A stretch of DNA of 64,000 nt, taken from the NCBI GenBank assembly GCA_043826925.1, contig JBDRPN010000002.1, positions 23,840 to 87,839 on the forward strand, written 5' to 3'. Of this stretch, positions 18,836 through 40,962 are shown one piece after another. This DNA comes from Pseudomonadota bacterium. GTDB lineage: Bacteria; Pseudomonadota; Gammaproteobacteria; Burkholderiales; Rhodocyclaceae. The notes below the pieces were generated by a model. It had not been told where the DNA came from and ran no database searches. It saw nothing but the letters and a program-made list of their open reading frames with translations. Every line of letters begins with the position of its first letter. Position 1 is the first letter of the stretch. Position numbers and translations under genes: made by a program.

Positions 18836-19375
18836 TCAGCGCCCGCGCAGAGGCAGTGCCGGCGCCGCTTCATAACGGATCACCAGGTCCAGCGTGCTGG
18901 CCACTGCCTGCGATCCCGCCTGCGCCGGGGTCAGGCGCGCCTGCGCGAAACGGCTCACCAGGCCGTCGAGCAATTCCTTCGGCACCGGGTCGCTATTGAT
19001 CACCATGACGCGGTCAACCGCGCCCAGTGCGCTGACATGGAGACGCAGGGTCAGGCTGCCGGAAAACGGCACCGCTATCTCCTCCAGATCCGCAAGGTCG
19101 GGCTCGACCAGAAAACGGGCCTTGCGCGTCAGCTTGCCGGCGGCATCGGCCGGCGCGGCGGCGGTCTGCGCCGGCGGCGACGATGTGGGGGCGGGTTCTG
19201 CGGCCGCAAGCGCCGGGGCTTCGGTGACTTCCTTGCTTGCCAGGACCACGGTCAGCGTGACCGCCTTCGCACTGCGCGTCAGGTGACCGGCGAACTCGGC
19301 GGACAGCAGCCAGCCGAGGCCAAGGTGCAGCGCCAGCGAGATGGCCAGGGGCCAGGCCAGAGGCGAAGAATTCAA
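18836..19375 (-). CDS. TonB-like protein (N-terminal TM anchor, Pro/Ala linker, TonB-C-like domain)
   Basis: TTG start overlaps the regulator stop (TTGA); AISLALHLGL TonB-type TM with SxxxH; LRLHVSALGAVDRV...FAQARLTPA. Confidence 0.55.
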   Translation of the reverse strand: MNSSPLAWPLAISLALHLGLGWLLSAEFAGHLTRSAKAVTLTVVLASKEVTEAPALAAAEPAPTSSPPAQTAAAPADAAGKLTRKARFLVEPDLADLEEIAVPFSGSLTLRLHVSALGAVDRVMVINSDPVPKELLDGLVSRFAQARLTPAQAGSQAVASTLDLVIRYEAAPALPLRGR

Positions 19376-20004
19376 TCGAAAAGCCTGTGTTCGATCGCGT
19401 AGCGGATCAGGTCGGCGTTGTTGCCGATGCCGAGTTTTTCCATCAGGTGGGTCTTGTGGGTGGTGACGGTCTTCGGGCTGAGATGCAGCAGTTCGGCGAT
19501 CTGGTTCAGCATCACGCCCTGGGCGATCAGGCGCAGCACTTCCCATTCGCGCGGGCTCAGGCTCTGGTGCGCGGCGCCACCGGCGTGGGCAGCCGCGTCG
19601 AAAGCCAGCGAGGCGGCGACCGAGGGATCGATGAAGCGCTCGCCGGCGCCGACCCGGGTCACGGCAGTGAACAGCGTATCCGGACTCGATCCCTTGGTGA
19701 TATAGCCGGAAGCGCCGGCCTGCAGCGCGCGCCGCACCGTTCCCGGTTCGTCGTGCATGCTCAGCACCAGGATCGGCAATGCGGGTTGCGCCTTGCGGAT
19801 CTGCTCGATCAGGCTGGTGCCGGAGGCGCCGGGCATGGTCAGGTCCATGACGATCAGTTCGGCGCCACCGGCGTTCGCCGCCGCCAGCGCTTCCGCTGCA
19901 TTGGTGGCTTCCTGCACCACTTCGATGCCGGCGAAGGAATGCAGCATCTGCCTGAGGCCGACGCGGAACAGCGTGTGGTCGTCGGCGATGATGATCCTGA
20001 TCAT
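19372..20004 (-). CDS. NarL/FixJ-family response regulator (RR1)
   Basis: IIIADDH, MDLTMPG, LSMH, GYITK receiver motifs; LuxR HTH LSPREWEVL...SPKTVTTHK. Confidence 0.93.
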   Translation of the reverse strand: MIRIIIADDHTLFRVGLRQMLHSFAGIEVVQEATNAAEALAAANAGGAELIVMDLTMPGASGTSLIEQIRKAQPALPILVLSMHDEPGTVRRALQAGASGYITKGSSPDTLFTAVTRVGAGERFIDPSVAASLAFDAAAHAGGAAHQSLSPREWEVLRLIAQGVMLNQIAELLHLSPKTVTTHKTHLMEKLGIGNNADLIRYAIEHRLFD

Positions 20005-21254
20005 GGTGAGTTCGTGCTCCCTTCTGCGTGGTCGGCCTTGAGTGGAACCTGCGGCAGTGTGACCGCCAGCCGCGTGCCGCTGCCGGGGCTGCTGTCGATT
20101 TCCAGCGTGCCGCCGAGCGCTGTGACGCGCTCGGATATGCCGAGCAAGCCGAAGTGCGCGGCATGGTCGACTTCCGGTACGTCGAAGCCCTTGCCGTCGT
20201 CTTCCAGCAGCAGTCGCATTTCACCCCGATCATGGCTCAGCGTGATGTCGACGTTCTGCGCGCCAGCGTGACGAACGATATTGGAAAGCGATTCCTGGAC
20301 GATGCGGAACAATGCGATTGCATAATCGTCGTCGAGGCGATCGGCCGTCTGGGTAAATGAAATGCCGTAGCGGATGCCGGCCGCCCCGAGCATGCGCGCC
20401 GCCACCCATTCCACCGCGGCAGTGAGACCAAGGTTGAGCGCCGCCGGTCGCAGGTCGGAGGCGATCGCCTTCACGCTGCGGTAGGCTTCGGCGATCATCG
20501 TCTCGATGTTGCGCGCGGCCTCGCGTGCCGCCGCCGAATCGGCCGGCAGGCTGCGTTCGAGCAATTGCAGATGCATGCGCGCGGTGGTCAACACCTGGCC
20601 CAGTTCGTCGTGGAATTCGCGCGCCAGGCGTGCGCGCTCCTGCTCGATGCGTGCTTCACGATGACTGGCCAGTTGCCGCAATTCCTGGCGCGAGCGTTCG
20701 AGATCCTGCTGGGTCTGCTTGAGGGCCGTCACGTCGAGGATCACGCCATGCACCACGCGCGTGCCGTCTGCCGCGAACTCCGTCGTGGTGCGGATCTGCA
20801 ACCAGCGCGGGCTGTCGCCGGCGAGCAGGCTGCGCCCGATCCATTCGAACTCGTGCGCCGCTGTCGCCGCCTGGCGCCAGACCAGGCCGGCAAGATCGTC
20901 GGGATGGATGCCGGCGAAAAATACCAGCGGATCGGCCAGCATTTCTGCCGCAGTACCCGGCAGCAAACGCACCACGCCGTCGCTGATGGAACGGAATCCG
21001 GGGGTCGGCGCGGCGACGTATTCGAACAAGGCCACCGGCAACTGGCTCGACAGCTGGCGCAGCCGGCCCTCAGAGGCGCGCAAGGCCAACTCGGCCTGGC
21101 GACGACGCGTCGTCAGCCCCTGACGCCGGCGCCACGACCAGAAGGCGAAGGCCATCATCACCGCCAGGGTGATGCCGATCAGCATCATCGCGGAAAGCGT
21201 CAGCTGCCGCGATGATGCGACGGTAATGTCCGTTGCGGCATGGGCGAGCGACAA
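20001..21254 (-). CDS. PAS-containing HisKA_3 sensor histidine kinase (HK1)
   Basis: One TM, PAS-like segment, H-box AREFHDELGQ, FRIVQESLSNIVRHA, DDGKGF, FGLLGISER; start uncertain. Confidence 0.9.
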   Translation of the reverse strand: MSLAHAATDITVASSRQLTLSAMMLIGITLAVMMAFAFWSWRRRQGLTTRRRQAELALRASEGRLRQLSSQLPVALFEYVAAPTPGFRSISDGVVRLLPGTAAEMLADPLVFFAGIHPDDLAGLVWRQAATAAHEFEWIGRSLLAGDSPRWLQIRTTTEFAADGTRVVHGVILDVTALKQTQQDLERSRQELRQLASHREARIEQERARLAREFHDELGQVLTTARMHLQLLERSLPADSAAAREAARNIETMIAEAYRSVKAIASDLRPAALNLGLTAAVEWVAARMLGAAGIRYGISFTQTADRLDDDYAIALFRIVQESLSNIVRHAGAQNVDITLSHDRGEMRLLLEDDGKGFDVPEVDHAAHFGLLGISERVTALGGTLEIDSSPGSGTRLAVTLPQVPLKADHAEGSTNSP

Positions 21255-21367
21255 GTGGCGAACTCCGGGAACAGGGCTTGCGGCGCATTATAGACAGCGG
21301 GATGCCAGGGAAGTCACGCTGTGGTGCCGGCGAACCGCAGTCGGCGTGTCGGCGGCGGCCGCGCATC

Positions 21368-21404: not shown

Positions 21405-21573
21405 AACTCTGGCCGGGCACACCGTTCCGCCAGGGCCGGCAGTTGCGAGAATGGTGACGTCGGCATCGCGGAAGGTCAGGATTCCCTTATCGTCAATCCG
21501 CTTTCGCTGATGGCGCACAACGTCGGGAACGTGAATCATCAGCCTGTCTTCAAAGTACAGGCGGCGCAAGCAA

Positions 21574-22071
21574 ATGAAATCCGGCGGAAGTGCCAGTGGC
21601 GGTTTCACATTGGTCGAACTAATCATCGTCATGGTGGTAATGGCGATTTTGTTCGCCATTGCGCTTCCCGCGTTCACGGATTTCACCAACAGTAGCCGCC
21701 GCACCTCGGCCATAACACTGCTCGTAAGCGACTTGAATCAGGCGCGCGCCGAGGCGATAAAGCGAAACCGGCGCGCCCTGGTCTGCGTGCGAAACGCCGG
21801 CGGAACTGCATGCGGGAGCGGTACGGACTGGCAAAACGGCTGGTTGGTGTGCGCCGATGAGGATAGCGACAATGATTGCGCTGCCGCCGACATCATCAAC
21901 ACCCGTCCCGCGCTCGACAGCAGGCTGACCCTTGTCGGCAGCGCTGCGGTGATGCGCTTCAATGCGAGCGGAAGTGCGGTGGCGGGGACATTGACCCTTG
22001 ACGGTACATGGGCCGGCGCCACGCCGCGGGTTATCACCATAGCCGCGACCGGGCGCGTCTCCAGTCTGTAG
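21574..22071 (+). CDS. fimT: FimT/GspH-family minor pilin (cassette 1)
   Basis: Prepilin G-FTLVEL; LNQARAEAIKR, WQNGWLV. Confidence 0.88.
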   Translation: MKSGGSASGGFTLVELIIVMVVMAILFAIALPAFTDFTNSSRRTSAITLLVSDLNQARAEAIKRNRRALVCVRNAGGTACGSGTDWQNGWLVCADEDSDNDCAAADIINTRPALDSRLTLVGSAAVMRFNASGSAVAGTLTLDGTWAGATPRVITIAATGRVSSL

Positions 22072-22082
22072 CTCAATCCATC

Positions 22083-22598
22083 GTGAATATTTTCGCATCG
22101 GGATCCATAAGTCGAGATCGCCAACAAGGCATGTCGTTGATTGAAGTTATGGTCGCGATCGTGATCATCGCGATTGCCCTGTTCGGCACCGCAAGCCTGC
22201 AGATGTCGGCCATGCGGCTGGGGCAGGGCGGCGTGCTGCGCAGTCACGCGGTGTTTTTGGCGCAGGACATCGCCGAACGAATGGAAAGCAATGCAGCCGG
22301 CGCGATCGCAGGATCCTATGCGGTCACCCTGACAAGCACTCCGCCCGCTGTCGATACGACTTGTGAAACCGCAGCATGCGCCCAGGCGGCGTTGGCCGCC
22401 TATGACGTCGCGCAATGGGCCAATACCGTCAGCATGGCGCTGCCGCAAAGCTCCTGGTCGATCACCCACACGGTTACCGGTACGCCAAGCACCTACACGA
22501 TCGTGGTGAGTTGGATCGACCGCCGTACCAAGACCTCTGACACAAGCGTCGGCGCGATCGCCGAATCCTTCACTCTGACGCGAACGATCCTCGATTGA
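22083..22598 (+). CDS. pilV: Type IV pilus modification protein PilV (cassette 1)
   Basis: G-MSLIEVMVAIVI; AQDIAERMESN; DVAQWANTV...LP; GTG start. Confidence 0.88.
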   Translation: MNIFASGSISRDRQQGMSLIEVMVAIVIIAIALFGTASLQMSAMRLGQGGVLRSHAVFLAQDIAERMESNAAGAIAGSYAVTLTSTPPAVDTTCETAACAQAALAAYDVAQWANTVSMALPQSSWSITHTVTGTPSTYTIVVSWIDRRTKTSDTSVGAIAESFTLTRTILD

Positions 22599-22602
22599 AA
22601 TC

Positions 22603-23631
22603 ATGAATACGCCCGTTTCCGCACCGCGCCGGCGCTTTTCGATCCCGACGGGCCGGGCCAAGGGTTTCAGCCTGATCGAAATGATGGTTGCCATGACCAT
22701 CGGCCTGGTGATTATCGTTGCCCTGCTCGGCATGCTGGCAAGCAGCTGGACTGGCGCAAGTTCAAATCGACGTACGTCGGAAATCGAATTCGATGGCCGC
22801 TATGCGCTCGATACGATACTCAACGACCTGCGTCATGCAGGGTTTCGCGGTAACAGTTGGGCCGAACCGACGGTGCCGACTACCGCGATCACGCCGATCA
22901 CCGACGAGTGCCTCCCGGCGGGCGCCGCGGCCGGCAGTTTCGTTTCCAATCTCCGGCAAGGGGTGTGGGGCGCGAACGACAGCAATCCATTCAGTGCGAA
23001 CTGCATTCCTGCGGCCTCCTATCTGCGCGGCGACATTCTGGTAATTCGCAAGGTGGCGAGCATTCCGGTCACTGCGCTGGCGGCCAATACGTTGTACTTT
23101 CGTTCCACCTACAACGCCGGGGAGATCTTCCGCGGAGTCCCCGCCACCGGCTGTGCGGCCCCTGTCTCGACCTATGCCGCCCCATTCGACAAGGTGCCCT
23201 GCATCGCCGGCACTCCGTCACAGGGTCTGGACGATTTCGCGCTCCAAACCTACGTGTACGGGATAGGTCCTTCGGCCGACGATGCAAGCGTGCCGGCGCT
23301 ATACCGCATATCGTTGCAGGCCGATGGGTCTATGACTTCAGAGTTAATTGCCAATGGCATCGAACACCTGCAGGTGCAATACGGACGCCACACCACGGAC
23401 CTGAACACCCGCTACTACAATGCCAATGCCATTGCCGGATCGTCGGTCGATACCTCGGTAACCGAATGGGATGACGTCGACACAGTGCGCGTGTGGATTC
23501 TGGCACGGAGCGCCACCGCAGAGCCTGGCTATACCAATACCGGCACCTATACGATGGGTGACACGAGCTATACGGTGAATGACGGATTCCGCCGCAACTT
23601 GCGGTCTGCTCTGGTTCACCTGCGCAACTGA
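22603..23631 (+). CDS. pilW: PilW-family minor pilin (cassette 1)
   Basis: G-FSLIEMMVAMTIG; GRYALDTILNDLRHAG; GIEHLQVQYG; VRVWILARS. Confidence 0.88.
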   Translation: MNTPVSAPRRRFSIPTGRAKGFSLIEMMVAMTIGLVIIVALLGMLASSWTGASSNRRTSEIEFDGRYALDTILNDLRHAGFRGNSWAEPTVPTTAITPITDECLPAGAAAGSFVSNLRQGVWGANDSNPFSANCIPAASYLRGDILVIRKVASIPVTALAANTLYFRSTYNAGEIFRGVPATGCAAPVSTYAAPFDKVPCIAGTPSQGLDDFALQTYVYGIGPSADDASVPALYRISLQADGSMTSELIANGIEHLQVQYGRHTTDLNTRYYNANAIAGSSVDTSVTEWDDVDTVRVWILARSATAEPGYTNTGTYTMGDTSYTVNDGFRRNLRSALVHLRN

Positions 23632-23641
23632 GATCCACGTC

Positions 23642-24208
23642 ATGGCGCCCAACTCCACTCTCGGTTCTCGCCTCGCACAAGACGGCTCGGCCCTGATTTC
23701 GAGCTTGCTGATCCTTATTCTGATCATGATCATCGGCGTCACGTCGATGAGTATTTCCGACATCCAGTTCAAACTCGCCGGCAATCTGCAGTTTCAGTCC
23801 ACGGCGATGAGCAGTTCCGAAACCGCCGTGGTCGAGGCCGAGAACTGGCTGGCCACAGGGAGCAACTACCTGAATGGCGGGTTCACTACCTATTCCAGCG
23901 CAACCACACCGTATCTGCATCCCATCGGGCACGTGGCCGGCTTGACCGCTCCCGGTAATGACGTGCTGACCATGACTTGGGACAACAGTAATTCGATTGA
24001 GGCGGCCACCAGTGCCGGTGGGTCGCAACGCTACCTCATCGAACTGCTCGCGCAGAACGTCAAGCTGCTCGGCGACGACGTGTCGTCGGGGGGGCGCAAG
24101 AGTACGGCTTGCAGTCAGGTCAACATTTACCGGGTCACGGCTCGCGGCGTCAGTGCACGCAACGCGACCAGATTCGTACAGACGAATTACAGCGTATTGA
24201 GCTGTTAG
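23642..24208 (+). CDS. pilX: PilX-family minor pilin (cassette 1)
   Basis: G-SALISSLLIL lacking Glu5 as typical of PilX; YRVTARG C-terminal motif. Confidence 0.85.
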   Translation: MAPNSTLGSRLAQDGSALISSLLILILIMIIGVTSMSISDIQFKLAGNLQFQSTAMSSSETAVVEAENWLATGSNYLNGGFTTYSSATTPYLHPIGHVAGLTAPGNDVLTMTWDNSNSIEAATSAGGSQRYLIELLAQNVKLLGDDVSSGGRKSTACSQVNIYRVTARGVSARNATRFVQTNYSVLSC

Positions 24209-24222
24209 AAAGGACGAGCATC

Positions 24223-27200
24223 ATGATTGCGTCGACCAAGAAAGAGTACTGGGCGGGAGGCCTTTTCTTCCTGGTTCTCGCCACAGCAATGATCCGGCTT
24301 GCCATTGCGCTGACCGCGTTCAATCCGGCAACTCAACCAACCGGATACATTGCGCAGAACGAGGTCAGCAATTTCAACCTCAGGTCCGGTACCGAGACGC
24401 TTTTCCGCACCGAGTACGAGAAGGAGTTCTACAGCGGAAACCTGTATGCCTACAGGATAAATGCGGCGGGAGAGTTTTCTGCGGACGCGGAAACCTGGGC
24501 GGGCGGCGCCGCCGCGCATATCGATTTGCAGAATTTCGACACCGGGCGGCTCATTGCCACGATGAAGGACGATGGTACCGGGACTGCGTTTCGCTGGAGC
24601 GGGACGAGCAGCCTGTCTGCCGCGCAGGCGGCCTTGATCGGCGACGCCACACTGGGTCCGGATATCCTAAATTACCTGCGCGGCGACCGCAGCAACGAAG
24701 TTCAGCTCGGAGTTGGAAGCTTTCATCAAAGGGCATCTGCGCTGGGCGACATCGTGCATTCACGCCCCTTTTTCGTGAGCGACAGCACTGATCCGACGAT
24801 ATTCGTCGGTGCCAATGACGGCATGCTGCACGCCATCAATGCAGACCAGGTGAATGGTGGTGATGAGCGCTGGGCCTATGTGCCATCGATGCTGCTCTCC
24901 AAGATCAAGAGCCTTTCCACCATTCCATTCGTGCGTGACTACTATGTCGATGGCCAGATCAATGTCGCGACCATCTTGTCCGGCAGCAAGCGGATACTGG
25001 TGGGCGGCCTGGGGGCGGGCGGCAAGGGTCTGTATGCGCTGAATATCACCGGCAATGCCGGCCTGACGGCGGCCAGCGAAGCTGCTGTCGCCGCCAAGGT
25101 GCTCTGGGAAATCACGCCGACCACGGTCAATTACGCCGCGCCGGCCACCGTCGGCGCCTACGCCAATCTGGGCTATACCTATGGCACGCCGACCATCGCC
25201 AAGGTGGCGGGTACCGACGCCGTCATAATCGGCAATGGCTACAACAACGGTGGCGACTATGGCGCTTACCTGTACGTCATCGATGCCAATACCGGCCAGC
25301 GCATCAAGGGGATCAAAGCCGGAACCAACGGTACGGTGGCCAGCCCGAATGGCATCTTTACCCCGGTCGCGGTAGACACCGACAACGACGGCTCTGTCGA
25401 TCTGGTCTTTGCCGGAGACCTCTACGGCACCCTGTGGAAGTTCACCCTGGCCACCGACACCGCGACAGCCCTGTTTGCATCCGGGCAACCGATCACCGGC
25501 ACCCCTGCGGTTTCACTGCATCCGAACGGCGGCTACATGATCAATTTCGCCACGGGTGCGATGTTCACCACCGCGGATACCACCGACACCACAGTGCACT
25601 ATGCCTACGGTATTTGGGATGGTGCAGTTGCCGGCAGTATAGTCACGCAGACCCTGACCGAGCGGGTCTTTGGCACCACGCGGGTGCGCCAGGTCACTAC
25701 GAATCCGATGGACTGGACCACCGACAAGGGCTGGAGGGTCGCCCTGCCGGCGGGTGAAAAGGTGGTCGGTGAGGGCAGCTATGTCGCCAACCAGCGTTTT
25801 TACTTTACCTCCCACAATCCGAACGTCAGCACGTTGATCTCGGGTACCTCGACAACCGTGCACGGCGAGAACTGGCTGATGGAGCTGGATTATCTTTCCG
25901 GCGGCAACAAGAACCAGCCCTTCCTCGACCTGAGTGCCGATCTGTTGCTTAACGACAGCGACCGAATTCTCTATCTGGCCAGCGACACCTACGTCGCCAC
26001 CGATGTTTATACAGCTTACGATGATCCACCGCCTCCGGGCAAGATCGTCGGCGACGTGATTGCCGCCGGACTGGTGGGAGACACCGTCGCCACCGGCCGC
26101 GTTGGCCGGCCCATACCCCACTCGGCGGGCATTCCGGTCGGCAAGTTTCTCGATATCGGTGTCGAATCGCAACCGATTCTGGTGCAACTGGTCACGCTCA
26201 ACGACACCTTGTTCAACCAGAGCCCCGACGTCAGCTTCCCGGTGATCACCGAATTGACCGCGGGCGGACGCGGCGTCGCGGGCGGGCATTTCGACGTCGA
26301 TAATTACTACAACGGGTCGTCGTCGACTTCCGGCGGCACCAAGGCCACGGCCACCATCACTGTCGGTACCACCGGTCAGCTCGCCGGCGTGGCAGCCACG
26401 CTCGGCATCATCTCGCTGGACGGCGTCACCGTCTTTCCTGCGCTGACGACCAGCGACATCACCAGTGGCACGGCCACCACCACCAATGCCACCACCATCA
26501 AGAACAAGGTCACGGGGGGCTTTTCCGCGACGGTCTCGGGTTCGACCATCACCATCAGCGCGCCGCAGATCGGCACCTTCTACAACGGCAAGACGCTCAC
26601 CATCGCGGCGGGCACCTCGGAGCCCGTGGTCCCAGCCACGCCCGCGGTCAGCAAGATCGTCATCGGCGCCCAGCCCGTGGGGCAGAACACCCGCATCACG
26701 GATGTCAGCTTCGACGGCAGTTCGATTCTGCCCGGCACCGTTAACTTCCTCGCCGGATCGTCGGAAAGCGACATCGCGACTGCGCTTGCGGCAGCGCTGA
26801 CGACCCCGAGCGGATTCGGCAAGACCATCACCACGACCAACGTTCCCAACGACACCATCACCTTCACCGCGACCACCGACGGCGGATCCGCCAAAGCGAT
26901 CGTCGTCACCAGCAGCGCGGCGGCGCCAGTTGCGGCGGCTGCCGGTGTTCCGGCAACAAGACCGACCGGCTTCATCAGGTTCGACGGCGGAACCACCAAT
27001 AATTTCGGAACACCGAGGATCAACGATGACGTTTCCGGCCGCAGCATCAGGGTCGGCGGTATCAACGTGAATAGCGGTGACATCGAGCCGGGCAGAAACA
27101 AGACGGCGGTACAGGTCGCCGCGGCGGTTGTTGCCGATACCGGAACCGGCGGGACGGTGAAGGCCTACATCGGCGGCAACAGCATTACGCCCCTGTGCGA

Positions 27201-32402: not shown

Positions 32403-32891
32403 ATGCGAAACAGGGCCTCTTCCGGTTTTAGCCTGGTTGAACTGATCGTCGTTGTGGCGATTATCGGCATCCTCGTCGCGATTGCCGTTCCCAGTTACAA
32501 CCAATACTTGATCCGTTCCAACAAGGCGGCCGCCAAGGCTGTGCTGATGGAGATTGCCAGTCGCCAGGAGCAGTACGTTGTACAGAATCGGGGCTATTTT
32601 CTCAATTGCACCGCCGCCTGCCCTGCGGATCCGAGCACTTTGCCGACTGCCGACTGCACGGCAAGCTCGACGACGATGTTCTCGGCACTGGGCGTCACCT
32701 TGCCGCAGGAGGCCCTGGCGGCCTACAACTTTGCCATTTGCGCGCCGACGACGACGGCGACCAACGTCAATCTCGCCAGCATGCCGACCTTCCAGGCGAC
32801 GGCGATCGCACGCAGCGACACGATTCAGGTCGGCGAGGCCACGCTGTATGTCAATCAGTTCGGCCTGCGCATGCCGCTGGCGCAATGGTGA
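32403..32891 (+). CDS. pilE: PilE-type type IV minor pilin (cassette 2)
   Basis: G-FSLVELIVVVAIIGILVAIAVPSY, AAAKAVLMEIASRQEQY; start 32373 or 32403. Confidence 0.87.
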   Translation: MRNRASSGFSLVELIVVVAIIGILVAIAVPSYNQYLIRSNKAAAKAVLMEIASRQEQYVVQNRGYFLNCTAACPADPSTLPTADCTASSTTMFSALGVTLPQEALAAYNFAICAPTTTATNVNLASMPTFQATAIARSDTIQVGEATLYVNQFGLRMPLAQW

Positions 32892-32898
32892 CGCGGCC

Positions 32899-34103: not shown

Positions 34104-34107
34104 AACG

Positions 34108-35493
34108 ATGAGCATCATGTGCGGATCGAATAGCGGACAGGCCGACACGCGGCGCCGGGTCGCCAGCGCCAACTTTCATGCGGGCGCACAAGCCGGCTTC
34201 ACGCTCGCCGAAGTGCTGGTGGCGATGGGCATTGCCATGGTGCTGCTGTCGGCGCTGGCAGGGCTCTTCGCCTCGACCGTAACCACCCGTCAGCAAGTGG
34301 ACCGCGAGGGCCAGAAGATTGAAAACGCGCGCTTCTCGATCGAGACCATGGCCGAGGACATCCGGCTGGCGGGATTCTGGGGTAACTACACGCCGGCCGG
34401 GCGCTGGAATTCGGTGCAATGGCAAGCCGTGTCGGCCCTGGAAGATGCCGGCAGCGGATGCACCGCCGCGGCCCTGACCCAGGGTTGGACCAATCTGGGC
34501 ACCGGCACCGTGAGGCTACCCGTGCCGATACTCGGATTCGAGGCGCACGACGACGGCGGCGCCACCCAGACCATCGACGACGAGATCACCGACTGCCTGC
34601 CGAACTATCTGGCGGGCACCGACGTCCTGGTGATCCGGCGCGCCAAGACGGCGGCCGTCACGGCCGAGGCCATCGCCGGCACGCTCAATGCCGCCAAGAC
34701 CTACCTGCAGGTGTCCGCATGTTCAACCGAACTCGGGACCAACGACTTTACGGTGACGACCGGCAGCACCTCGCCCGCCGGTCTGATGCGCCTGGGCTGT
34801 TCCGCGCTTGCCGCCGACCGCGCCCCGGTCTGGGAGCTGATCACCCGCATCTACTACGTCGCCTCGGAAAACGAGTCCGGCGACAACATTCCGACCCTGA
34901 AAATGATCGACACCAGTGCCGGTGCCACCACGCCGGTCACCATCGCGCCGCACGTGGTGGACTTGCATCTGGAATACGGCATCGACCCCTCGGGTTACCA
35001 GTGGACGGCGAACACGGTGGTCCTCGCCGGTGCCGGTCGCAGGAACCTCGATCGCCTCTACGTCACGGCGGCAGGCGGAACCACCGGCATCGCCGCGCCC
35101 ACGCACACCAGCGGCACGGTGTCCGATGGCGGCGTCAGCTGGACCCCTTATGCGCTGATCGAGGGTTCGATCGATGCCTACGGCCGCTCGACCATCGATC
35201 CGGAGCGCCTGATGCCGAACGGTTCGACCACCGGTACGGCCTTGACCGACCCCTGGGGAGGCGCCACCAATTGGCAGGACGTCATGTCGATCAAATTGTG
35301 GGTGGTGGTGCGCGACCCCGAGGCGACCAGGAATTACACGAACAACAAGGAATTCGTGCTCGGGTCGATCTCCGTGCCGGCGGCGACCTTGAATGCCCGG
35401 GGCGTGAATGGCGGCAGCTACCGCTACAAGTCGTCCGGATCAACCATCAAGGTGGTCAACATGGCCGGACGCAGGGAGGATGTGGTGCCATGA
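34108..35493 (+). CDS. pilW: PilW (cassette 2) with an internal insertion
   Basis: G-FTLAEVLVAM; ENARFSIETMAEDIRLAG; GTDVLVIRRA; LHLEYGID; IKLWVVVR. Confidence 0.87.
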   Translation: MSIMCGSNSGQADTRRRVASANFHAGAQAGFTLAEVLVAMGIAMVLLSALAGLFASTVTTRQQVDREGQKIENARFSIETMAEDIRLAGFWGNYTPAGRWNSVQWQAVSALEDAGSGCTAAALTQGWTNLGTGTVRLPVPILGFEAHDDGGATQTIDDEITDCLPNYLAGTDVLVIRRAKTAAVTAEAIAGTLNAAKTYLQVSACSTELGTNDFTVTTGSTSPAGLMRLGCSALAADRAPVWELITRIYYVASENESGDNIPTLKMIDTSAGATTPVTIAPHVVDLHLEYGIDPSGYQWTANTVVLAGAGRRNLDRLYVTAAGGTTGIAAPTHTSGTVSDGGVSWTPYALIEGSIDAYGRSTIDPERLMPNGSTTGTALTDPWGGATNWQDVMSIKLWVVVRDPEATRNYTNNKEFVLGSISVPAATLNARGVNGGSYRYKSSGSTIKVVNMAGRREDVVP

Positions 35494-36041
35494 AATCAAT
35501 CCCATTCCGCATAGCGCCGCGGCGGCCTGCCGCGCAGCGTGGTTCGGTGCTGCTGTTGAGCCTGTTCATGCTGATGGTGATGACCCTGCTGGCGCTGTCG
35601 GCCATCAAGATGGGCACTGTGAATTTGCGCACCATCAACAACATGCAAATGCGCAGCGAGGCCATGGGTGCGGCCCAGCATGCCCTCGACCAGGTGATGA
35701 GCACCAATTTCACCGACGACGTCGCCGGCACGGAGCGCGCCTGGACCGTGGCGGTCGATGCCGGCAAAACCTACAACGTCGCGGTGGCCCGCCCCTGCAT
35801 CCGCCAGGTGACGCCGATCATGAACACCGTGCTGGACATCGGCAACAGCGAAGACCTGAAATGCTACGACACGATTTCCAACCCGGTATCCGCCTGTTCC
35901 ACCACGGTCTGGGAGATCACCGCCACCGTCAGTGAAGGCTGGTTCGGCGCCAACGTCGCGATCACCCAGGGCACCGGCATCCGCATGGACAACGGCGCGG
36001 CGACTGTGTACTCCAACGATTCTTCCTATCGTTGCTCATGA
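35490..36041 (+). CDS. pilX: PilX (cassette 2)
   Basis: QRG-SVLLLSLFMLMVMTLLAL; ATGA overlap with pilW. Confidence 0.85.
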   Translation: MKSIPFRIAPRRPAAQRGSVLLLSLFMLMVMTLLALSAIKMGTVNLRTINNMQMRSEAMGAAQHALDQVMSTNFTDDVAGTERAWTVAVDAGKTYNVAVARPCIRQVTPIMNTVLDIGNSEDLKCYDTISNPVSACSTTVWEITATVSEGWFGANVAITQGTGIRMDNGAATVYSNDSSYRCS

Positions 36042-36057
36042 AGTCGGAGCTCATATC

Positions 36058-39000
36058 ATGAACATTCCCCAATCCCTGCGCCACGGCGTCATCGCCGTGG
36101 CTGCCACCGTCGGTCTCGGGATGATGACCCCCTCGCTGGCGGAAGACATCGATCTCTATGTCGGCGGCGAAGCCGCCACCGGATCCCAGGCCAATGTGCT
36201 GATCGTGCTCGACAACTCGACCAACTGGGCCGCGGCCAATCAGGGCTGGCTTCCTTCCGGCACCAAGCAGGGCGAAGCGGAACTTCAAGCCCTTTCTGAA
36301 ATCCTGTCCACCCTGGGCGATAACATCAATGTCGGCTTGCTGATGGCGGCGGGCTCCAACGGCGGCTACGTGCGCTTCGGCGTGCGCGAGATGAGCGGCA
36401 CAAACAAGACCGCCTTCACCGGCATGCTCAACAACATGGTCGCCACCTTCGGCGGCGACGGCGACAACGACGACAAGGTCAATACCGCCTCCATCGTCTA
36501 TGACAGCATGTTGAATGCGGCCTACCGCTATTTCAACGGCTTTGCCCGTTTCGGTACCACCGACCTGCCCAGCGGCAGTGTGCTTGACCTGCGCGATTAC
36601 ACCGGCAGCACGGTCAATACCACCAAACAGCCGGCCGGCGCGCTGGCCGGCAATTCCCTGGCCACCTCCACCTCCACCACCTATCTGCCGCCCGGCACCG
36701 CCAACGATGGCTGCGCCAAGAACTTCATCATTTTCATTGGCAACGGCTATCCGAACCAGGCCGGAACCACCACCGATCTGTCGGACGCTGCGGCGCTGGC
36801 CGGAATCACCACAGCGGCCACCGTCAGCGCCATCACCGCCCCGGTCTCCGGCGGCAGCCCGAAGATCGCCGACGAGTGGACGCGCTTCATGTACACCTAC
36901 GGCGTCACGTCCACCGTGGACGACCCGAAGAGCACCAGCAGTCCGAAGGCCAAGCTGATTAACAAGATCGCCACCTACACCATCGATGTCTGCAAGGATG
37001 CCTGCGAAGCCGATCAGGCTACCTTGCTCAAGAGCATGGCCAAGGTCGGCGGCGGCAAGTACTACAAATCCACCAGCAAGCAGGAAATCAAGAATGCGAT
37101 GTCCCTGATCTTCGCCGAGATCCAGGCCGTCAATAGCGTGTTCGCTTCGGCCACGCTGCCGATTTCGGTGAATACCCAGGGCACGTTCGAAAACCAGGTG
37201 TATATCGGCGTGTTCCGTCCCGACTCGGGCGCCCGTCCGCGCTGGTTCGGCAACCTCAAGGAATACAAGTTCGGCCGCTACTGCGACGCCGACCGCAACG
37301 ACAAGGTACTGATCGACAACACCCGCGCGCTGGCCAACGGCATGGTGACCGCGACCCTGACCGGCAACGCCACCGGCACGGTGACGGGAAGCTTCAGCGG
37401 CACCCTGACCACGCTGAGCGGCAGCAGTGCAGTGAGCGGAACGGTGGCCGGCACCGTCAGCGGTACCTCGTCGGCCACTCTTGCGGCGACCTTCGGCGGT
37501 TCGCCGGGAACCACCGGCAGTCCCGCGGTCGATGCAGGCAGCGGCACGGTGACCGGAACCATTACCGGAACCGGCACGGGGACCGGCAGTTCGACCTTCA
37601 CCGGCACCTTGAACGGCATCTCCTCACTGTCGGGAAGTTTCACTGCCACCGACGAGCGCATCGGCGACGACGTCCCGGCGCCCAGTTGCGGCTCCGATGC
37701 CTCGGGCGATATCCCCCTCAACCTCTACCTGGGCGACCAGCACGGCTACCGCGCGATCGACGAAGAAGGCAATACCGGCTTCATCGATCTGTCGGCCAAG
37801 AGCTATTGGACGTCCGCTTCGAGCTTCTGGACCGCAACGCCGAATGCGACCGGCGGCGCCAGCGATTCGCCGGACGGACCGGAAGTCGAGCGCGGCGCCG
37901 CGGCGCAGCGCCTGCGCACCGCGTGGGCGACCACGGCGACCTCGCCGCACCCGGACGGGCGCAGGGTGTACACCTGTCTCGGCACCTGCCTGGCTTCCGC
38001 TGCCACCACATCGCAGAAGACGCTGTCGAACAATGCGGTGACCACCAGCAATAGCGAAGTCACGGCCGCGCTGGCCGCGCCCAGCGGCTCGGCGACCGTG
38101 ACCCTGGCCCGTTCCGGCAACACGGTGACGGCCACATCGACCGCGGCGCACGGTTTCGCGGACGGCGCCACGGTCACCATCGCCGGCGCCACGCCGACCG
38201 ACTACAACGGCGCCAAGACCATTACCTTCGTCGATGCCACGCATTTCACCTACACCCTGAACGAGTCCCCGACCACCACCGATACCGCAACGGCGACCAA
38301 GCCCGGCGGCACGGTCACGGTTACCGACATTTCGCTGTCCGGCACCACGGCGGGCACGACCGTGACCGCCACGGTGACGACGAATCCCGCCCATGGCCTT
38401 GCGGCCGGCAATGTGACGACGATTGCGGGGGCCGCCCAGTCCTTCCTCAATGGCTCGCATACCGTGCTTGGCGCACCGGCGGTGACCGGCACCACCTTCG
38501 CCGTCAGCGTGACCTTGCCGGCCAATCCGGCGACGCCGGCGACGACCGCCGGCAGTGCGGTCGCCATCGGCCAGACGGCAACCCACAGCTCGATCAGTTA
38601 TTCCACGGCGGCCTGTACTGCCGGTGCCGCGGCGGGCTGCGCCGTGGTCCTGGCGACTGGAAATCTCGGCAACAAGTTCGTCACCGGCAACACAGTCGTG
38701 GTCTCCAATGCGGCTCCCGATGCCTACAACACCGGAGCCGCCGGGACGACGATCCGCGCCACCGGCACCAGTTGCCCGAACACCGCGACGCTGACCGTCA
38801 CCAACAGCAACAAGAACGCCGTCTACTGCTACACCGTGGCCGCGCAGCCGACGGTCGTGACGCCGGACGGGGGCGCGAGCAAGACGGCGACAAGTCCCGG
38901 CACCTCCTTCCCGGTCGACATCACGCGGACGCTGGGCAGCACCACGGCGACGGTGGTCACCAACCCGGCAGCGGCTCACGCCTTCACTACCGCCGACAGC

Positions 39001-40962
39001 ATCACCATCAGCGGCGCCGCGCAAAGCCAGTACAACGGTGCCTGGACGCCGCTGAGCGTCAATGTGCCCGACGCCAATACCTTCACCTTCGGCCCGGTCA
39101 CGCTGACGCCGGCCACGCCGCCGACCGGAACCATCACGGCCACCACCGGCACCGGCGTGGCCGGGCCGGACACCACCAACCTGATCCTGTGGACCCGCGG
39201 CAAGGATCTGTGGGAAGACGAGGACATCAATGCGTCGCTGACCAATGTGCGCGCCAGCATTCACGGCGACGTGCTGCATGCGCGGCCGGTAGTCGTCAAC
39301 TACGGCAGCAGCATCGGCATCGTCGGCTTCTACGGCGCCAACGACGGCTTCCTGCGTGCGATTCACGGCGGCACGGCAGGTATCGACGGCGAGGAAAAGT
39401 GGGCCTTCATGCCCAGCGAATTCATGACCTACACCAAGCTGGCAAGGCTTTACAGCAACAGCGAAGTCGTGCGCTATCCCAACCTGTCCTGCAGCATCTC
39501 GCCGACGCCCACTGGGCGCAACTATTTCTGGGACGGCTCGCTGACCGCCTATCAGTCGCCGGACGGCACGGCATCCACGGCGCCGAGCAAGACCTGGCTG
39601 TTTGCCACCCTGCGCCGCGGCGGGCGCGCCCTGTATGCGCTGGATGTCACCGATCCGGACGTGCCCAAGTTCATGTGGCGCATCACCAATGCCAGCACCG
39701 GATTTTCCGAACTGGCGCAGACCTGGTCCGAGCCGAAGATCGCCAAGCTCAAGGGGACCTTCACCCGCGCCGACGCGACGGTGATCACCGATCCCGTGGT
39801 GCTGGTGTTCGGCGCCGGCTACGACGCTGCCCAGGAGGACAAGCCGACCGGCAGCCATATCACGCCGACCATGGGCCGCGGCGTGTTCGTGGTCGAGGCC
39901 GAGACCGGGCAGTTGATCCAGTTCCTGCAGCCCACCTCGGGCGTCACCGGCTACAGTTTTGCCGCCGACGTGAATGCCCTCGACCTGAACGCCGACGGTT
40001 ACCTGGATCGCATTTACGCGGGCGACACCAATGCCAATCTGTTCCGCTTCGATACCCAGCAGACAGTGACCAATGTCGCCAGCAGCAGCTACTGGAAGCG
40101 CTATCACCTGGCCAAGGTGGGCGATGTCGATGCCAACGGCGGAGTCAACGCGCGGAAATTCCTCTTCGCGCCGGAAGTGCTGCCCTTCCTGCACAACGGC
40201 GTAATCAAGACCATGGTGCTGGTCGGCAGCGGCAACCGCGAAAAGCCGCTGCCCAACTTCCAGTCCGACGGCAGCCCGAATGCACTGACCTGCTCCAGCC
40301 TCTACACCGACACCTACTACCCGAGCTCGTCATCGAACAAGATCAACGACCGCTTCTTCGGCTTGCTCGATCCGGTGCAATCCGGCGCCACCGAGGCGAC
40401 GGTGAATGCCGATCCAATTGTTTTCGGCGACCTGCAGCAGATCAATTCCAATACCCTGGCGACCACCACGCTGACGCCCTTCAGCTTGTCCAGCAGCGAC
40501 CGCGGCTGGAACATCCTGCTGCGCAACGATCCCGACGGCAACGGCACGCGCAACGAGGAGAAGTCGGTGAATGCCGCCAAGGTGGTGGCCGGGGTGGTCT
40601 TCTTCGCCACCAACACACCCGTGTCGCCCAATCCGAGTGCGGGCGTCTGCTCCAATCTGGGCGAGGCGCTGGGCTACGCGGTCGATCCCTTCACCGGTCT
40701 GCCGGCGATCAACCGCGACGAATCGACCAGCGGCGGCGTGGCAACCTACACCAGCGTCGATTTCGCCACCAAGTTTTCCGGCGGCGGCCTGCCCCCGACC
40801 GTGACCGCGGGTGTGGTGTCGATCGGCGGCACGCCCTACCGCTTCATCATCGGCAGCGGCGGCGACACGCTGACCTCGGCGTCGTCGATCGCCGGCGCGC
40901 GCAGCGTGATCAATCTGCGGGGTACGCGCTCCCGGCTCTACTGGTCCTACGGCGCCGACTGA
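36058..40962 (+). CDS. pilY1: PilY1 adhesin with vWA-like N-terminus and repeat-rich middle (cassette 2)
   Basis: AEDIDLY, VLIVLDNS vWA-like start; WFGNLKEY; HGDVLHARP, ANDGFLRA, EKWAFMP, TWSEP, Ca-loop DLNADGYLD. Confidence 0.9.
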   Translation: MNIPQSLRHGVIAVAATVGLGMMTPSLAEDIDLYVGGEAATGSQANVLIVLDNSTNWAAANQGWLPSGTKQGEAELQALSEILSTLGDNINVGLLMAAGSNGGYVRFGVREMSGTNKTAFTGMLNNMVATFGGDGDNDDKVNTASIVYDSMLNAAYRYFNGFARFGTTDLPSGSVLDLRDYTGSTVNTTKQPAGALAGNSLATSTSTTYLPPGTANDGCAKNFIIFIGNGYPNQAGTTTDLSDAAALAGITTAATVSAITAPVSGGSPKIADEWTRFMYTYGVTSTVDDPKSTSSPKAKLINKIATYTIDVCKDACEADQATLLKSMAKVGGGKYYKSTSKQEIKNAMSLIFAEIQAVNSVFASATLPISVNTQGTFENQVYIGVFRPDSGARPRWFGNLKEYKFGRYCDADRNDKVLIDNTRALANGMVTATLTGNATGTVTGSFSGTLTTLSGSSAVSGTVAGTVSGTSSATLAATFGGSPGTTGSPAVDAGSGTVTGTITGTGTGTGSSTFTGTLNGISSLSGSFTATDERIGDDVPAPSCGSDASGDIPLNLYLGDQHGYRAIDEEGNTGFIDLSAKSYWTSASSFWTATPNATGGASDSPDGPEVERGAAAQRLRTAWATTATSPHPDGRRVYTCLGTCLASAATTSQKTLSNNAVTTSNSEVTAALAAPSGSATVTLARSGNTVTATSTAAHGFADGATVTIAGATPTDYNGAKTITFVDATHFTYTLNESPTTTDTATATKPGGTVTVTDISLSGTTAGTTVTATVTTNPAHGLAAGNVTTIAGAAQSFLNGSHTVLGAPAVTGTTFAVSVTLPANPATPATTAGSAVAIGQTATHSSISYSTAACTAGAAAGCAVVLATGNLGNKFVTGNTVVVSNAAPDAYNTGAAGTTIRATGTSCPNTATLTVTNSNKNAVYCYTVAAQPTVVTPDGGASKTATSPGTSFPVDITRTLGSTTATVVTNPAAAHAFTTADSITISGAAQSQYNGAWTPLSVNVPDANTFTFGPVTLTPATPPTGTITATTGTGVAGPDTTNLILWTRGKDLWEDEDINASLTNVRASIHGDVLHARPVVVNYGSSIGIVGFYGANDGFLRAIHGGTAGIDGEEKWAFMPSEFMTYTKLARLYSNSEVVRYPNLSCSISPTPTGRNYFWDGSLTAYQSPDGTASTAPSKTWLFATLRRGGRALYALDVTDPDVPKFMWRITNASTGFSELAQTWSEPKIAKLKGTFTRADATVITDPVVLVFGAGYDAAQEDKPTGSHITPTMGRGVFVVEAETGQLIQFLQPTSGVTGYSFAADVNALDLNADGYLDRIYAGDTNANLFRFDTQQTVTNVASSSYWKRYHLAKVGDVDANGGVNARKFLFAPEVLPFLHNGVIKTMVLVGSGNREKPLPNFQSDGSPNALTCSSLYTDTYYPSSSSNKINDRFFGLLDPVQSGATEATVNADPIVFGDLQQINSNTLATTTLTPFSLSSSDRGWNILLRNDPDGNGTRNEEKSVNAAKVVAGVVFFATNTPVSPNPSAGVCSNLGEALGYAVDPFTGLPAINRDESTSGGVATYTSVDFATKFSGGGLPPTVTAGVVSIGGTPYRFIIGSGGDTLTSASSIAGARSVINLRGTRSRLYWSYGAD

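Follow-up and report, generated by a model that had tools for sequence, protein, structure and literature searches.

Twin minor-pilin/PilY1 cassettes, each adjacent to a NarL-family two-component system, in a freshwater Sulfuritalea bacterium: conserved pairing and candidate operators

In Myxococcus xanthus, which has three clusters of minor-pilin/PilY1 genes, the HsfBA phosphorelay brings about differential expression of PilY1 (PMC7541494, PMC9109919). In Pseudomonas aeruginosa, the two-component system FimS(AlgZ)-AlgR controls the fimU-pilVWXY1Y2E operon (PMC5979040, PMC8787478), and YfiBNR (TpbB) is an envelope-stress c-di-GMP module described in both P. aeruginosa and Escherichia coli (PMC3375315, PMC4887326). 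The locus described here, which lies in a window of 64,000 nucleotides (the whole stretch of DNA analyzed) from the 4.96-Mb assembly of a freshwater Sulfuritalea bacterium, appears to extend a principle that Myxococcus and Pseudomonas already exemplify. We consider it reasonably likely that it encodes two alternative type IVa priming/tip modules, each under the transcriptional control of the NarL-family two-component system next to it.

The region between positions 19372 and 40962 had been described in the first-pass annotation as two minor-pilin/PilY1 cassettes, each divergent from its own NarL-type pair, and Pfam searches bore out this gene content (Table 1). In unit 1, RR1 and HK1 are encoded on the minus strand, divergent from fimT-pilV-pilW-pilX-pilY1-pilE; in unit 2, which follows, RR2 and HK2, likewise on the minus strand, diverge from pilE-fimT-pilV-pilW-pilX-pilY1. 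A search of the 4.96-Mb assembly found no PilY1 genes other than these two. The paralogs are indeed highly diverged, as had been claimed, with 25-40% identity between the proteins of the two cassettes, and PilX1 and PilX2 cannot be aligned at all. The claim that the window lacks a major pilin and an assembly ATPase holds for the entire contig, on which no PilB/PilT-type ATPase or further pilin gene was found; these are encoded elsewhere in the genome. The gene for the 128-aa coiled-coil protein between the units is located directly upstream of HK1 in other species.

Table 1. Genes and candidate regulatory sites of the locus (window coordinates)
Feature	Position	Strand	Evidence or remark
CHASE8-GGDEF diguanylate cyclase, YfiN-like	15142-16266	-	Pfam GGDEF 1.2e-46, CHASE8 9.8e-18
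YfiR/HmsC-like periplasmic protein	16271-16933	-	Pfam DUF4154 5.7e-31
TonB-dependent receptor	16804-18765	-	Pfam Plug and TonB_dep_Rec barrel
Small TonB_C-like protein (weak call)	18836-19402	-	Pfam TonB_C E=0.013, below curated cut-off
RR1, NarL/FixJ-family response regulator	19372-20004	-	Pfam REC 4.4e-27, GerE 1.4e-20
HK1	20001-21254	-	one transmembrane helix, cytoplasmic PAS, HisKA_3, HATPase
TATAAT, conserved -10 of presumed HK1 promoter	21287-21292	-	block CATTATAGACAG
Candidate operator P1, GTCAGGATTCCCTTAT	21475-21490	+	consensus ATCAGG-N4-CCCTAT
Candidate operator P2, ATCCGCTTTCGCTGAT	21496-21511	+	5 nt after P1; type ATCCGC-N4-GCTGAT
-10-like hexamer AATCAT	21534-21539	+	22 nt after P2, 35 nt before fimT1 ATG
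fimT1, FimT/FimU-type minor pilin	21574-22071	+	GspH, N_methyl
pilV1	22083-22598	+	Tt1218-like, N_methyl; start codon as chosen
pilW1	22603-23631	+	PilW PF16074, 1.3e-20
pilX1	23642-24208	+	PilX PF13681, 9.6e-9
pilY1_1, 1486 aa	24223-28683	+	PF05567, 133 bits
pilE1	28729-29178	+	ComP_DUS 7.6e-18, N_methyl
Conserved coiled-coil protein, 128 aa	29237-29623	+	no family
RR2, NarL/FixJ-family response regulator	29774-30409	-	36% identical to RR1
HK2	30406-31959 or 30406-31839	-	start ambiguous; periplasmic CHASE8, HAMP, HisKA_3, HATPase
Distal RR2-type palindrome, GTAGT-N6-ACTAC	32031-32046		sole exact copy in the 4.96-Mb genome
Candidate P1 in cassette-2 promoter, ATCAGGTTTACCCTAT	32258-32273	+	sole exact TCAGG-N4-CCCTAT in the genome
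Degenerate P2-like site, TTAAGTGATTCCTGAT	32279-32294	+	right half alone conserved
Proximal RR2-type palindrome, ATAGT-N6-ACTAC	32345-32360		1 mismatch; 13 nt before first pilE2 ATG
pilE2	32373-32891	+	ComP_DUS (Pfam); ATG at 32403 may be the true start
fimT2	32899-33468	+	GspH, N_methyl; start codon as chosen
pilV2	33465-34103	+	N_methyl; Tt1218-like match weak, below Pfam cut-off
pilW2	34108-35493	+	PF16074 1.1e-12
pilX2 (frame corrected)	35490-36041	+	PilX_N weak, 21.7 bits, E=2e-4, below Pfam cut-off
pilY1_2, 1634 aa	36058-40962	+	PF05567 45.6 bits, 6.1e-12; propeller C-terminal

PilY1_1 and PilY1_2 differ strongly in architecture. PilY1_1, which matches P. aeruginosa PilY1 (PDB 3hx6, E=2.7e-32), consists of a beta-propeller in the N-terminal third followed by approximately 900 aa that are rich in Thr, Ser and Gly and match no family. 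For PilY1_2, the orthologs of which are 64-96% identical, Pfam and PDB sequence searches did not confirm a vWA domain. An open reading frame at 35408-35935, initially taken for pilX2, is in the wrong frame; the corrected PilX2 is 94-97% identical to its orthologs in the closest relatives and 53-61% identical to those from cassette-2-type loci in other species. Both PilE proteins match the ComP_DUS family, a FimT/GspH-type pilin is present in both cassettes, and the genome encodes six PilB/GspE-type ATPases and thus several filament systems, so one or both cassettes might act in another role of type IV filaments, for instance DNA uptake (via FimT and ComP-type DNA receptors), rather than in adhesion or twitching. 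We regard this as quite improbable, given that ComP_DUS and GspH also cover ordinary type IVa PilE and FimU and that the canonical priming complex of type IVa pili consists of the full FimT-PilVWX-PilY1-PilE set.

The sensors differ in type, in agreement with the earlier assignment of a cytoplasmic PAS domain to HK1 and a periplasmic sensor to HK2. Pfam makes no PAS call for HK1 (PAS_3, E=0.067); a profile of eight orthologs matches the PAS structure 3mr0 (E=1.6e-8). The sensor of HK2 is a CHASE8 domain. An NCBIfam model exists for histidine kinases near YfiR-like proteins (HK_near_YfiR_like), and the N-terminal part of HK2 resembles it, with a score of 68 bits that is under the cut-off of 194. 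No NCBIfam equivalog reaches its cut-off for RR1.

The first-pass annotation had named conservation of the regulator-cassette pairing across genomes as a check, and the pairing proved to be conserved despite inversions, insertions and moves to different contigs. Orthologs of RR1 (at least 64% identity) were found in 37 species-level genomes, 31 of which have a usable flank, and in 29 of the 31 a minor-pilin cassette lies directly beside HK1, at a distance of 0.2-1.7 kb; the exceptions are L020, where HK2-RR2 alone lies in between, and L044, which has no cassette. At 43 loci with RR1-like genes of no more than 49% identity, no pilins were found nearby. A cassette adjoins HK2-RR2 in all 14 genomes with an RR2 ortholog (at least 66% identity), in divergent orientation in Sulfuritalea-type genomes and co-directionally (HK2-RR2-pilE-fimT...) in the genus g37 and in G173. 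Independent confirmation comes from G343, where the pairs are unlinked, the first two-component system with a cassette-1-type set being on contig C5 and the second with a cassette-2-type set on C26. For comparison, 59 other Rhodocyclaceae genomes supplied 60 further PilY1 cassettes, none of which has either two-component system, or any full-length NarL-type regulator, directly beside it; within approximately 3 kb, one gene for a 26%-identical regulator and three receiver-only genes were seen. Both systems are absent from G090, the complete genome of cultured type from this genus.

The cassette beside HK1-RR1 varies by species, being a cassette-2-type set or yet another type elsewhere, so this site is best described as a swappable slot; the type changes even at 98% RR1 identity (L017 and L018 compared with the window). 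Twin or triple cassettes without a two-component system are common in Rhodocyclaceae, and the twin layout itself is therefore ordinary. The rapid cassette turnover in a fixed slot, the GC content of approximately 0.60 over 22-34 kb compared with approximately 0.67 in the flanks, and the occurrence in the family of two or three cassettes in tandem with no regulators (L109, L116, L118, L126) could also reflect diversifying selection on the tip, as would arise from evasion of pilus-specific phages or predators, in which case the regulators would be a piliation on/off switch and the tips redundant rather than surface-specialized. This explanation seems unlikely considering that two different sensor types and two operator sequences are maintained, that HK2-RR2 retains cassette-2-type sets in nine Sulfuritalea-type genomes, and that the two PilY1 architectures differ so greatly.

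Candidate operators were detected in the cassette promoters. P1 is present, with at most two mismatches, in all 29 HK1-cassette intergenic regions, always in one orientation and whatever the cassette type, and is absent from g37 and G173, genomes without an RR1 ortholog. TCSAGG-type matches with at most one mismatch number 22 in 17.9 kb of intergenic DNA versus 21 in the whole genome, both strands included. P2 was scored in 18 of 30 promoters, or 20 if a 6-nt gap is allowed in L022 and L052. A -10-like hexamer lies exactly 22 nt after the proximal palindrome in 25 of the 30 RR1-type promoters; L022 fits this spacing when re-read with the 6-nt gap, and L024 also has AATCAT at +22. On the HK1 side, the block CATTATAGACAG is kept in up to 19 of 27 intergenic regions versus at most 5 in shuffled controls.

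The RR2-type palindrome (consensus TGTAGT-N6-ACTACA) is found where RR2 occurs, always upstream of the first pilin gene; it is exact in the window and in L012, L014, L097, L098, L099 and L100, and has one mismatch in L020, L104, L105, L107 and L108. Neither this palindrome nor P1 occurs in exact form at the 60 other Rhodocyclaceae PilY1 cassettes. TAGATT follows the palindrome by exactly 22 nt in L012, L014, L098 and L100. The proximal position is likewise occupied in L020, L104 and L105, and only 13-43 nt separate the proximal copy from the pilE2 start codon in the window and the genomes nearest to it, where the 22-nt rule fails; this placement would fit repression or a different promoter.

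The genes downstream of RR1 could point in another direction. In many species HK1-RR1 is followed by genes for the TonB-like protein, the TonB-dependent receptor, YfiR and the cyclase, so the RR1 regulon may be partly unrelated to pili. The cyclase gene is the final one of the HK1-RR1 transcription unit and is also found downstream of RR1 in L016-L020, L043, L047, L048 and L052; the small TonB_C-like gene follows RR1 in several other loci too. The main targets of the two-component systems could instead be the c-di-GMP/envelope circuit formed by these downstream genes, or genes at a distance, with the cassettes as passengers in a recombination-prone intergenic slot. About one locus in three has the receptor-YfiR-cyclase genes behind RR1; in G343, G412, G415 and G173, HK2 is preceded by receptor and YfiR genes; and the switch of cassette type between genomes with nearly the same RR1 is compatible with this possibility as well. 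We nevertheless give it a low probability: adjacency of the cassettes is far better kept than that of the receptor-YfiR-cyclase genes, within the intergenic region the conserved operators are close to the cassette, a constant distance from a -10 box that points toward it, and in the co-directional loci, including those of g37, the palindrome separates RR2 from pilE and would therefore serve the cassette rather than autoregulation.

Returning to two regulated tip modules, we combine the observed gene content, neighborhood conservation, and conserved and specific operator/promoter geometry with the following proposed scheme for binding, sign of regulation, signals and consequence for pilus function. 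Each module of four or five minor pilins and a PilY1 adhesin would work with a pilus machine whose genes lie elsewhere in the genome. Phosphorylated RR1 would bind the tandem 16-bp palindromes P1 and P2, and phosphorylated RR2 the TGTAGT-N6-ACTACA palindrome; as these assignments are by co-occurrence, another factor may bind either. Because the palindrome ends exactly 22 nt before the -10-like hexamer in most loci, its center is near -41.5 of what appears to be a sigma-70-type promoter without a -35 box, a class II activator geometry that fits activation. HK1 would read a cytoplasmic cue through its PAS domain, and HK2 a periplasmic or envelope cue through its YfiN-type CHASE8 domain, probably gated by the YfiR-like protein. 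In the slot beside HK1-RR1, cassettes would be exchanged between species while regulator and operator remain. The presence of RR1-type and RR2-type operators in the cassette-2 promoter suggests joint control, so that cassette 2 probably integrates both systems and cassette 1 answers to RR1 alone. The original proposal of a dedicated sensor for each interchangeable tip thus stands in part: the pairing is conserved and the cassette promoters contain regulator-specific palindromic candidate operators, whereas HK1-RR1 is tied to the slot, the cassette-2 promoter has both operator types, and the twin layout is common without two-component systems. The scheme predicts a signal-dependent choice of pilus tip.

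Among known systems, PilS-PilR, which is encoded beside the pilin gene under its control, resembles the locus in arrangement, but is NtrC-type and sigma-54 dependent and controls the major pilin, not a tip set. The likeness to YfiBNR lies in the YfiR-like periplasmic protein (DUF4154) and the CHASE8-type periplasmic sensor: HK2 shares its sensor domain with the YfiN-like cyclase in the window, and in four relatives yfiR is immediately upstream of HK2. The output here, however, is a histidine kinase and NarL-type regulator besides the cyclase, and no YfiB lipoprotein gene was seen, a TonB-dependent receptor gene being located beside yfiR, where yfiB might be expected. FimS-AlgR is a two-component system that directly activates a minor-pilin/PilY1 operon, as proposed here, but AlgR is LytTR-type and its gene is distant from that operon, only one cassette is present, and PilY1 feeds back on FimS. 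M. xanthus has several alternative priming/tip sets per genome, as here, and its phosphorelay picks the PilY1 set, the sets being thought to adapt one type IVa machine to different conditions. Its regulator is an NtrC-like enhancer-binding protein with sigma-54-type control that is not encoded beside each cassette, whereas in this Sulfuritalea bacterium the cassettes are physically linked to two systems of the NarL/FixJ type, and the candidate operators are palindromes at sigma-70-like promoters.

The source of the window is a metagenome-assembled genome of Sulfuritalea sp. (Rhodocyclaceae), and the nearest public loci bear the Sulfuritalea name. Pfam scans bear out the gene content that the first-pass annotation had proposed for the two units, in each of which a minor-pilin/PilY1 cassette faces its own two-component system (HK1-RR1 for cassette 1, HK2-RR2 for cassette 2). 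One gene call had to be replaced: the open reading frame at 35408-35935 is a wrong-frame artefact, and the actual pilX2 overlaps the stop codon of pilW2. Every member of cassette 1 exceeds the Pfam cut-off for its family; in cassette 2, this is the case for the GspH, PilW, ComP_DUS and PilY1 matches but not for PilV2 (Tt1218-like, 15.7 bits) and PilX2 (PilX_N, 21.7 bits), the identities of which are supported by gene position and orthologues. Prepilin N_methyl matches were obtained for fimT1, pilV1, pilW1, pilE1, pilE2, fimT2, pilV2 and pilW2. The pilins of both cassettes carry a class III signal (G-F/M-x-x-x-E plus a hydrophobic helix); a scan for the prepilin motif recovered 7 of the 8 N_methyl pilins, missing pilW2, and PilX1 and PilX2 have an N-terminus of the PilX type.

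Features of the two pilin units and their intergenic regions (window positions)
Feature	Position	Strand	Assignment or remark
RR1	19372-20004	-	REC + GerE (Pfam)
HK1	20001-21254	-	HisKA_3 + HATPase (Pfam)
HK1 N-terminus	21200-21254		conserved pre-helix stretch
fimT1, pilV1, pilW1, pilX1, pilY1_1, pilE1	21574-29178	+	facing HK1-RR1 (Pfam)
pilY1_1	24223-28683		N-terminal propeller
coiled-coil protein gene	29237-29623	+	no family match
RR2	29774-30409	-	Pfam
HK2	30406-31959	-	CHASE8, HAMP, HisKA_3, HATPase (Pfam)
RR2-type palindrome, exact	32031-32046		
TCAGG-N4-CCCTAT	32258-32273		cassette-2 promoter
RR2-type palindrome, one mismatch	32345-32360		just before pilE2
pilE2, fimT2, pilV2, pilW2, pilX2, pilY1_2	32373-40962	+	facing HK2-RR2
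pilX2	35490-36041		overlaps pilW2 stop codon

The paralogues of the two cassettes are indeed highly diverged, with 25-40% identity and a PilX pair that cannot be aligned. The two pilY1 genes are the only ones in the 4.96-Mb assembly, and the pilus ATPases (PilB/PilT type) and candidate major pilins, noted earlier as missing from the window, are encoded on other contigs: the genome contains six PilB/GspE-type ATPases, a PilT/PilU-like pair on contig C58 and, on contig C25, two PilA-like pilin genes adjoining a PilB-like gene. The cassette proteins are annotated here as predicted pilus-tip or priming components. The GC content is ~0.60 across 22-34 kb, a segment that spans cassette 1, the HK2-RR2 genes and the start of cassette 2, compared to 0.65-0.70 in the flanks.

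The PilY1 propeller (PF05567) scored 133 bits in PilY1_1, which also matches PDB 3hx6 (E=2.7e-32), and 45.6 bits in PilY1_2. The architecture of PilY1_1 is atypical: the propeller occupies the N-terminal third (residues ~173-517), and the ~900 residues after it are Thr-, Ser- and Gly-rich and match no family, a reversal of the domain order usual in PilY1/PilC. A vWA domain in PilY1_2 was supported neither by Pfam nor by PDB sequence search. Downstream of pilE1, we found a gene for a 128-aa coiled-coil protein, homologues of which (45-50% identity) occur in five other loci (L026, L028, L030, L031 and L034), where their genes directly precede HK1 in the same orientation; the protein therefore travels with HK1-RR1 or with sets of the cassette-1 type.

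Both two-component systems combine a REC + GerE regulator with a HisKA_3 + HATPase kinase (Pfam, NCBIfam), and the phospho-acceptor Asp and the H-box His are recognisable in the sequences. Neither regulator could be assigned to a named NarL/FixJ subfamily (GacA/UvrY, NarL, UhpA, MctR and others), the best NCBIfam equivalogs scoring 158-160 bits against cut-offs of 280-300; no LytTR-type DNA-binding domain was detected, both proteins possessing a GerE/LuxR-type HTH. In HK1, a single transmembrane helix precedes a cytoplasmic PAS domain. For the latter, suggested in the first-pass annotation, Pfam alone gave no call (E=0.067), but a profile built from eight orthologues matched the PAS structure 3mr0 (E=1.6e-8). 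The ~18 residues that precede the helix, SLAHAA(E/T)DIT(V/I)ASSRQLTLSAM, are strongly conserved in orthologues down to ~65% identity, and a related form is still recognisable in more distant ones; this stretch could serve as a short peptide for signalling or interaction outside the cytoplasm.

The association of each system with a pilin cassette is conserved in other genomes (29/31 loci for RR1 and 14/14 for RR2). A search that included one genome per species identified RR1 orthologues in 37 loci, with 64-99% identity and all from Sulfuritalea or related Rhodocyclaceae, the next proteins showing at most 49%. Upstream sequence sufficient for judging was available for 31 of these loci; in 29 of them, the start of HK1 and a prepilin gene are 0.2-1.7 kb apart, the two being divergent in 28 and co-directional in one (L034). 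In L020, HK2-RR2 alone separates HK1 from a cassette, and in L044 (the same locus as L004/L005, from genome G010, labelled a Propionivibrio MAG), there is an in-frame TGA in the HK1 orthologue and other genes occupy the slot, the site beside HK1-RR1 that otherwise holds pilin cassettes. Between HK1 and a ferredoxin-domain gene, the L044 slot contains a Uma2-like gene and three MSHA/T2SS-like pseudopilin genes and no PilY1 cassette. No pilins were found near more distant RR1-like genes in 43 loci. RR2 was sought in 400 family members together with the RR1-bearing genomes, which yielded orthologues (at least 66% identity) in 13 other genomes, after which identity drops to 60% or less, and a minor-pilin cassette adjoins the RR2 system in all 13 as well as in the window. 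In Sulfuritalea-type genomes, HK2-RR2 and a cassette-2-type set are transcribed divergently; in g37, a genus that has RR2 and lacks RR1, system and cassette are co-directional (HK2-RR2-pilE-fimT and so on); and in G173, HK2-RR2 is flanked by two cassettes.

Such adjacency might be a general trait of PilY1 cassettes in Rhodocyclaceae. This explanation is ruled out by 60 control PilY1 loci, drawn from 59 other genomes in the family: in no case does a full-length NarL-type regulator gene immediately adjoin the cassette. The nearest case is a regulator gene with 26% identity ~3 kb away, and a receiver-only gene occurs within ~3 kb in just three control loci. The linkage is therefore confined to one lineage. 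The twin layout in itself is not special, since two or three cassettes in tandem, lacking a neighbouring two-component system, are found elsewhere (L109, L116, L118 and L126, in genomes G040, G006, G094 and G079, respectively).

The type of cassette that faces HK1-RR1 differs among species. A cassette-1 type is found in the window, L016, L019 and, inverted, L034; a cassette-2 type in L021, L022 (genome G048), L042 and L052, with PilY1_2 identity from ~40% (L042) to 78%; and most of the remaining RR1 loci harbor other pilE-first types. In G401 and G402, cassette 2, HK2-RR2 and HK1-RR1 are retained at 93-99% identity, and a different cassette takes the position of cassette 1. In L020, cassette 2 is followed by HK2-RR2-HK1-RR1 and cassette 1 is missing; because the HK1-proximal half of the intergenic region between HK1 and cassette 1 (IG1) is alignable between L020 and the window, cassette 1 and its promoter represent an insertion or deletion of ~8.4 kb. 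In G343, the two pairs are unlinked, on different contigs, with the same partners as in the window (HK1-RR1 with a cassette-1-type set and HK2-RR2 with a cassette-2-type set). The segment comprising cassette 1 and HK2-RR2 shows presence/absence variation among relatives (against L020, and against L021, L022 and L052). A mobile-element origin of this segment is unsupported: the window contains no tRNA gene, no integrase signature marks the segment, and no direct or inverted repeats flank it beyond the shared pilin N-termini.

Comparison of the HK1-cassette intergenic regions revealed three conserved non-coding blocks, a TATAAT on the HK1 side and two at the cassette end. The first of the latter, P1, is a 16-bp palindrome, (ATCAGG or ATAGGG)-N4-CCCTAT, which is present with at most two mismatches in 29/29 of these regions and in constant orientation relative to the cassette, regardless of cassette type. 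A stricter form, TCAGG-N4-CCCTAT, matches exactly at one place in the genome, the cassette-2 promoter; with up to one mismatch, there are 21 copies genome-wide (both strands) compared to 22 in the 17.9 kb of HK1-cassette intergenic regions. The second palindrome, P2 (ATCCGC-N4-GCTGAT), follows 5 nt past P1 in 18 promoters as scored, or 20 if a gap of 6 nt is allowed in L022 and L052. Of 30 promoters, 25 have a -10-like hexamer (AATCAT, GATCAT, TAGAAT, TATACT or TAGACT) that starts exactly 22 nt past the promoter-proximal palindrome, a spacing that places the palindrome centre near -41.5; L022 also fits this spacing when re-read with a 6-nt gap, and L024 has AATCAT at +22 as well. A sigma-54 promoter in IG1, considered on account of TGGCGC-N5 in the conserved block, was rejected: the -12 TTGC is missing and shows no conservation across loci.

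A different palindrome, TGTAGT-N6-ACTACA, tracks RR2. Upstream of the first pilin gene, L012, L014, L097-L100 and the window have an exact copy, the window's being the only one in its genome; a one-mismatch copy is found just before pilE2 in the window and in L020, L104, L105, L107 and L108; and in co-directional loci, the palindrome is located between RR2 and pilE. In L012, L014, L098 and L100, TAGATT again starts exactly 22 nt past it. No exact copy of either motif was detected at the 60 control cassettes, and P1 is absent in genomes with no RR1 orthologue (g37, G173). Where both regulators are encoded, cassette promoters hold both motifs (L034, L097, L107, L108 and the region between HK2 and cassette 2 in the window); IG1 of the window contains only P1 and P2. 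The proximal RR2-type site of the window breaks the 22-nt rule, and repression by RR2 at this site is therefore conceivable. There is no convincing -10 hexamer from the distal RR2-type palindrome towards HK2 that would point to autoregulation. Exact GTAGT-N6-ACTAC also occurs near RR2-like genes (40-49% identical) in distant phyla (Chitinophagaceae, Bacteroidota and other distant MAGs; L060, L065, L073, L087 and L091), and a much broader NarL-type subfamily may use it as operator.

On the 3' side of RR1, on the same strand, lie genes for a weak TonB_C-like protein, a TonB-dependent receptor, a YfiR-like protein (DUF4154, 5.7e-31 in Pfam) and a CHASE8-GGDEF cyclase. The YfiN-like cyclase (64.7 bits) and HK2 (31.1 bits) share the CHASE8 domain, so that the YfiR-like protein and CHASE8 sensor of YfiBNR are both represented. 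We noticed no YfiB (Pal/OmpA-like lipoprotein) in the window, and the TonB-dependent receptor gene adjoins yfiR. In four relatives (G343, L097; G412, L107; G415, L108; G173, L098), TonB-dependent receptor and yfiR-like genes directly precede HK2-RR2 in one operon. Compared to the YfiBNR relay, the receptor gene in these genomes stands beside yfiR where yfiB might be expected, and the output is a kinase, not merely a cyclase. HK2 also resembles, with a score below the cut-off, the NCBIfam model for kinases near YfiR-like proteins. Given the common CHASE8 domain, the yfiR adjacency and this resemblance, gating of HK2 by YfiR in the periplasm is plausible. YfiR/CHASE8 sensing, hitherto described mainly for a c-di-GMP cyclase, is also tied here to a histidine kinase adjoining pilus genes.

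The most economical reading of this conservation is that each NarL-type regulator would directly control the neighboring tip cassette via its own operator. The regulators are probably class II activators, and RR1 probably acts on cassette 2 as well. A further-reaching proposal, which as a whole we consider unlikely, is a two-input decision circuit. Under this proposal, an outer-membrane or periplasmic relay made up of the TonB-dependent receptor and the YfiR-like protein would gate the CHASE8 kinase HK2 and the CHASE8 cyclase alike, such that envelope or surface signals would choose the pilus tip while raising c-di-GMP; RR1, informed by its PAS domain, would share in the control of both cassettes via common P1 operators; and the regulator with its operator and promoter would be a fixed docking station that has repeatedly received foreign tip cassettes, each coming at once under host control.

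The minor-pilin/PilY1 set loaded on a pilus decides what it binds and under which conditions it works. To our knowledge, the mechanism by which a tip set is chosen is known only in Myxococcus and, for a single set, in Pseudomonas. The present locus offers a compact, sequence-defined alternative, with two small NarL-type systems, two different predicted 16-bp operators and a fixed promoter geometry, and some 40 genomes provide a natural series of cassette exchanges under one regulator. Together, these make the regulator-operator assignments and the "plug-in" evolution of adhesin sets directly testable.

Choice among tip sets by signals and two-component control of a minor-pilin operon are both established: Myxococcus xanthus chooses among multiple minor-pilin/PilY1 sets through signal transduction (PMC7541494, PMC9109919), and the minor-pilin operon of Pseudomonas aeruginosa is under the two-component system FimS-AlgR (PMC5979040). 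In the literature, we found nothing specific on NarL-type control of minor pilins or on CHASE8 kinases with YfiR, nor any account of a locus of the present kind. In contrast to FimS-AlgR, which relies on LytTR-type DNA binding, RR1 and RR2 employ the GerE/LuxR-type HTH. What is new here is a NarL/FixJ regulator family outside the named subfamilies, the physical coupling of its members to the cassettes, the predicted operators with their promoter geometry, and the behavior of the locus as a "docking slot".
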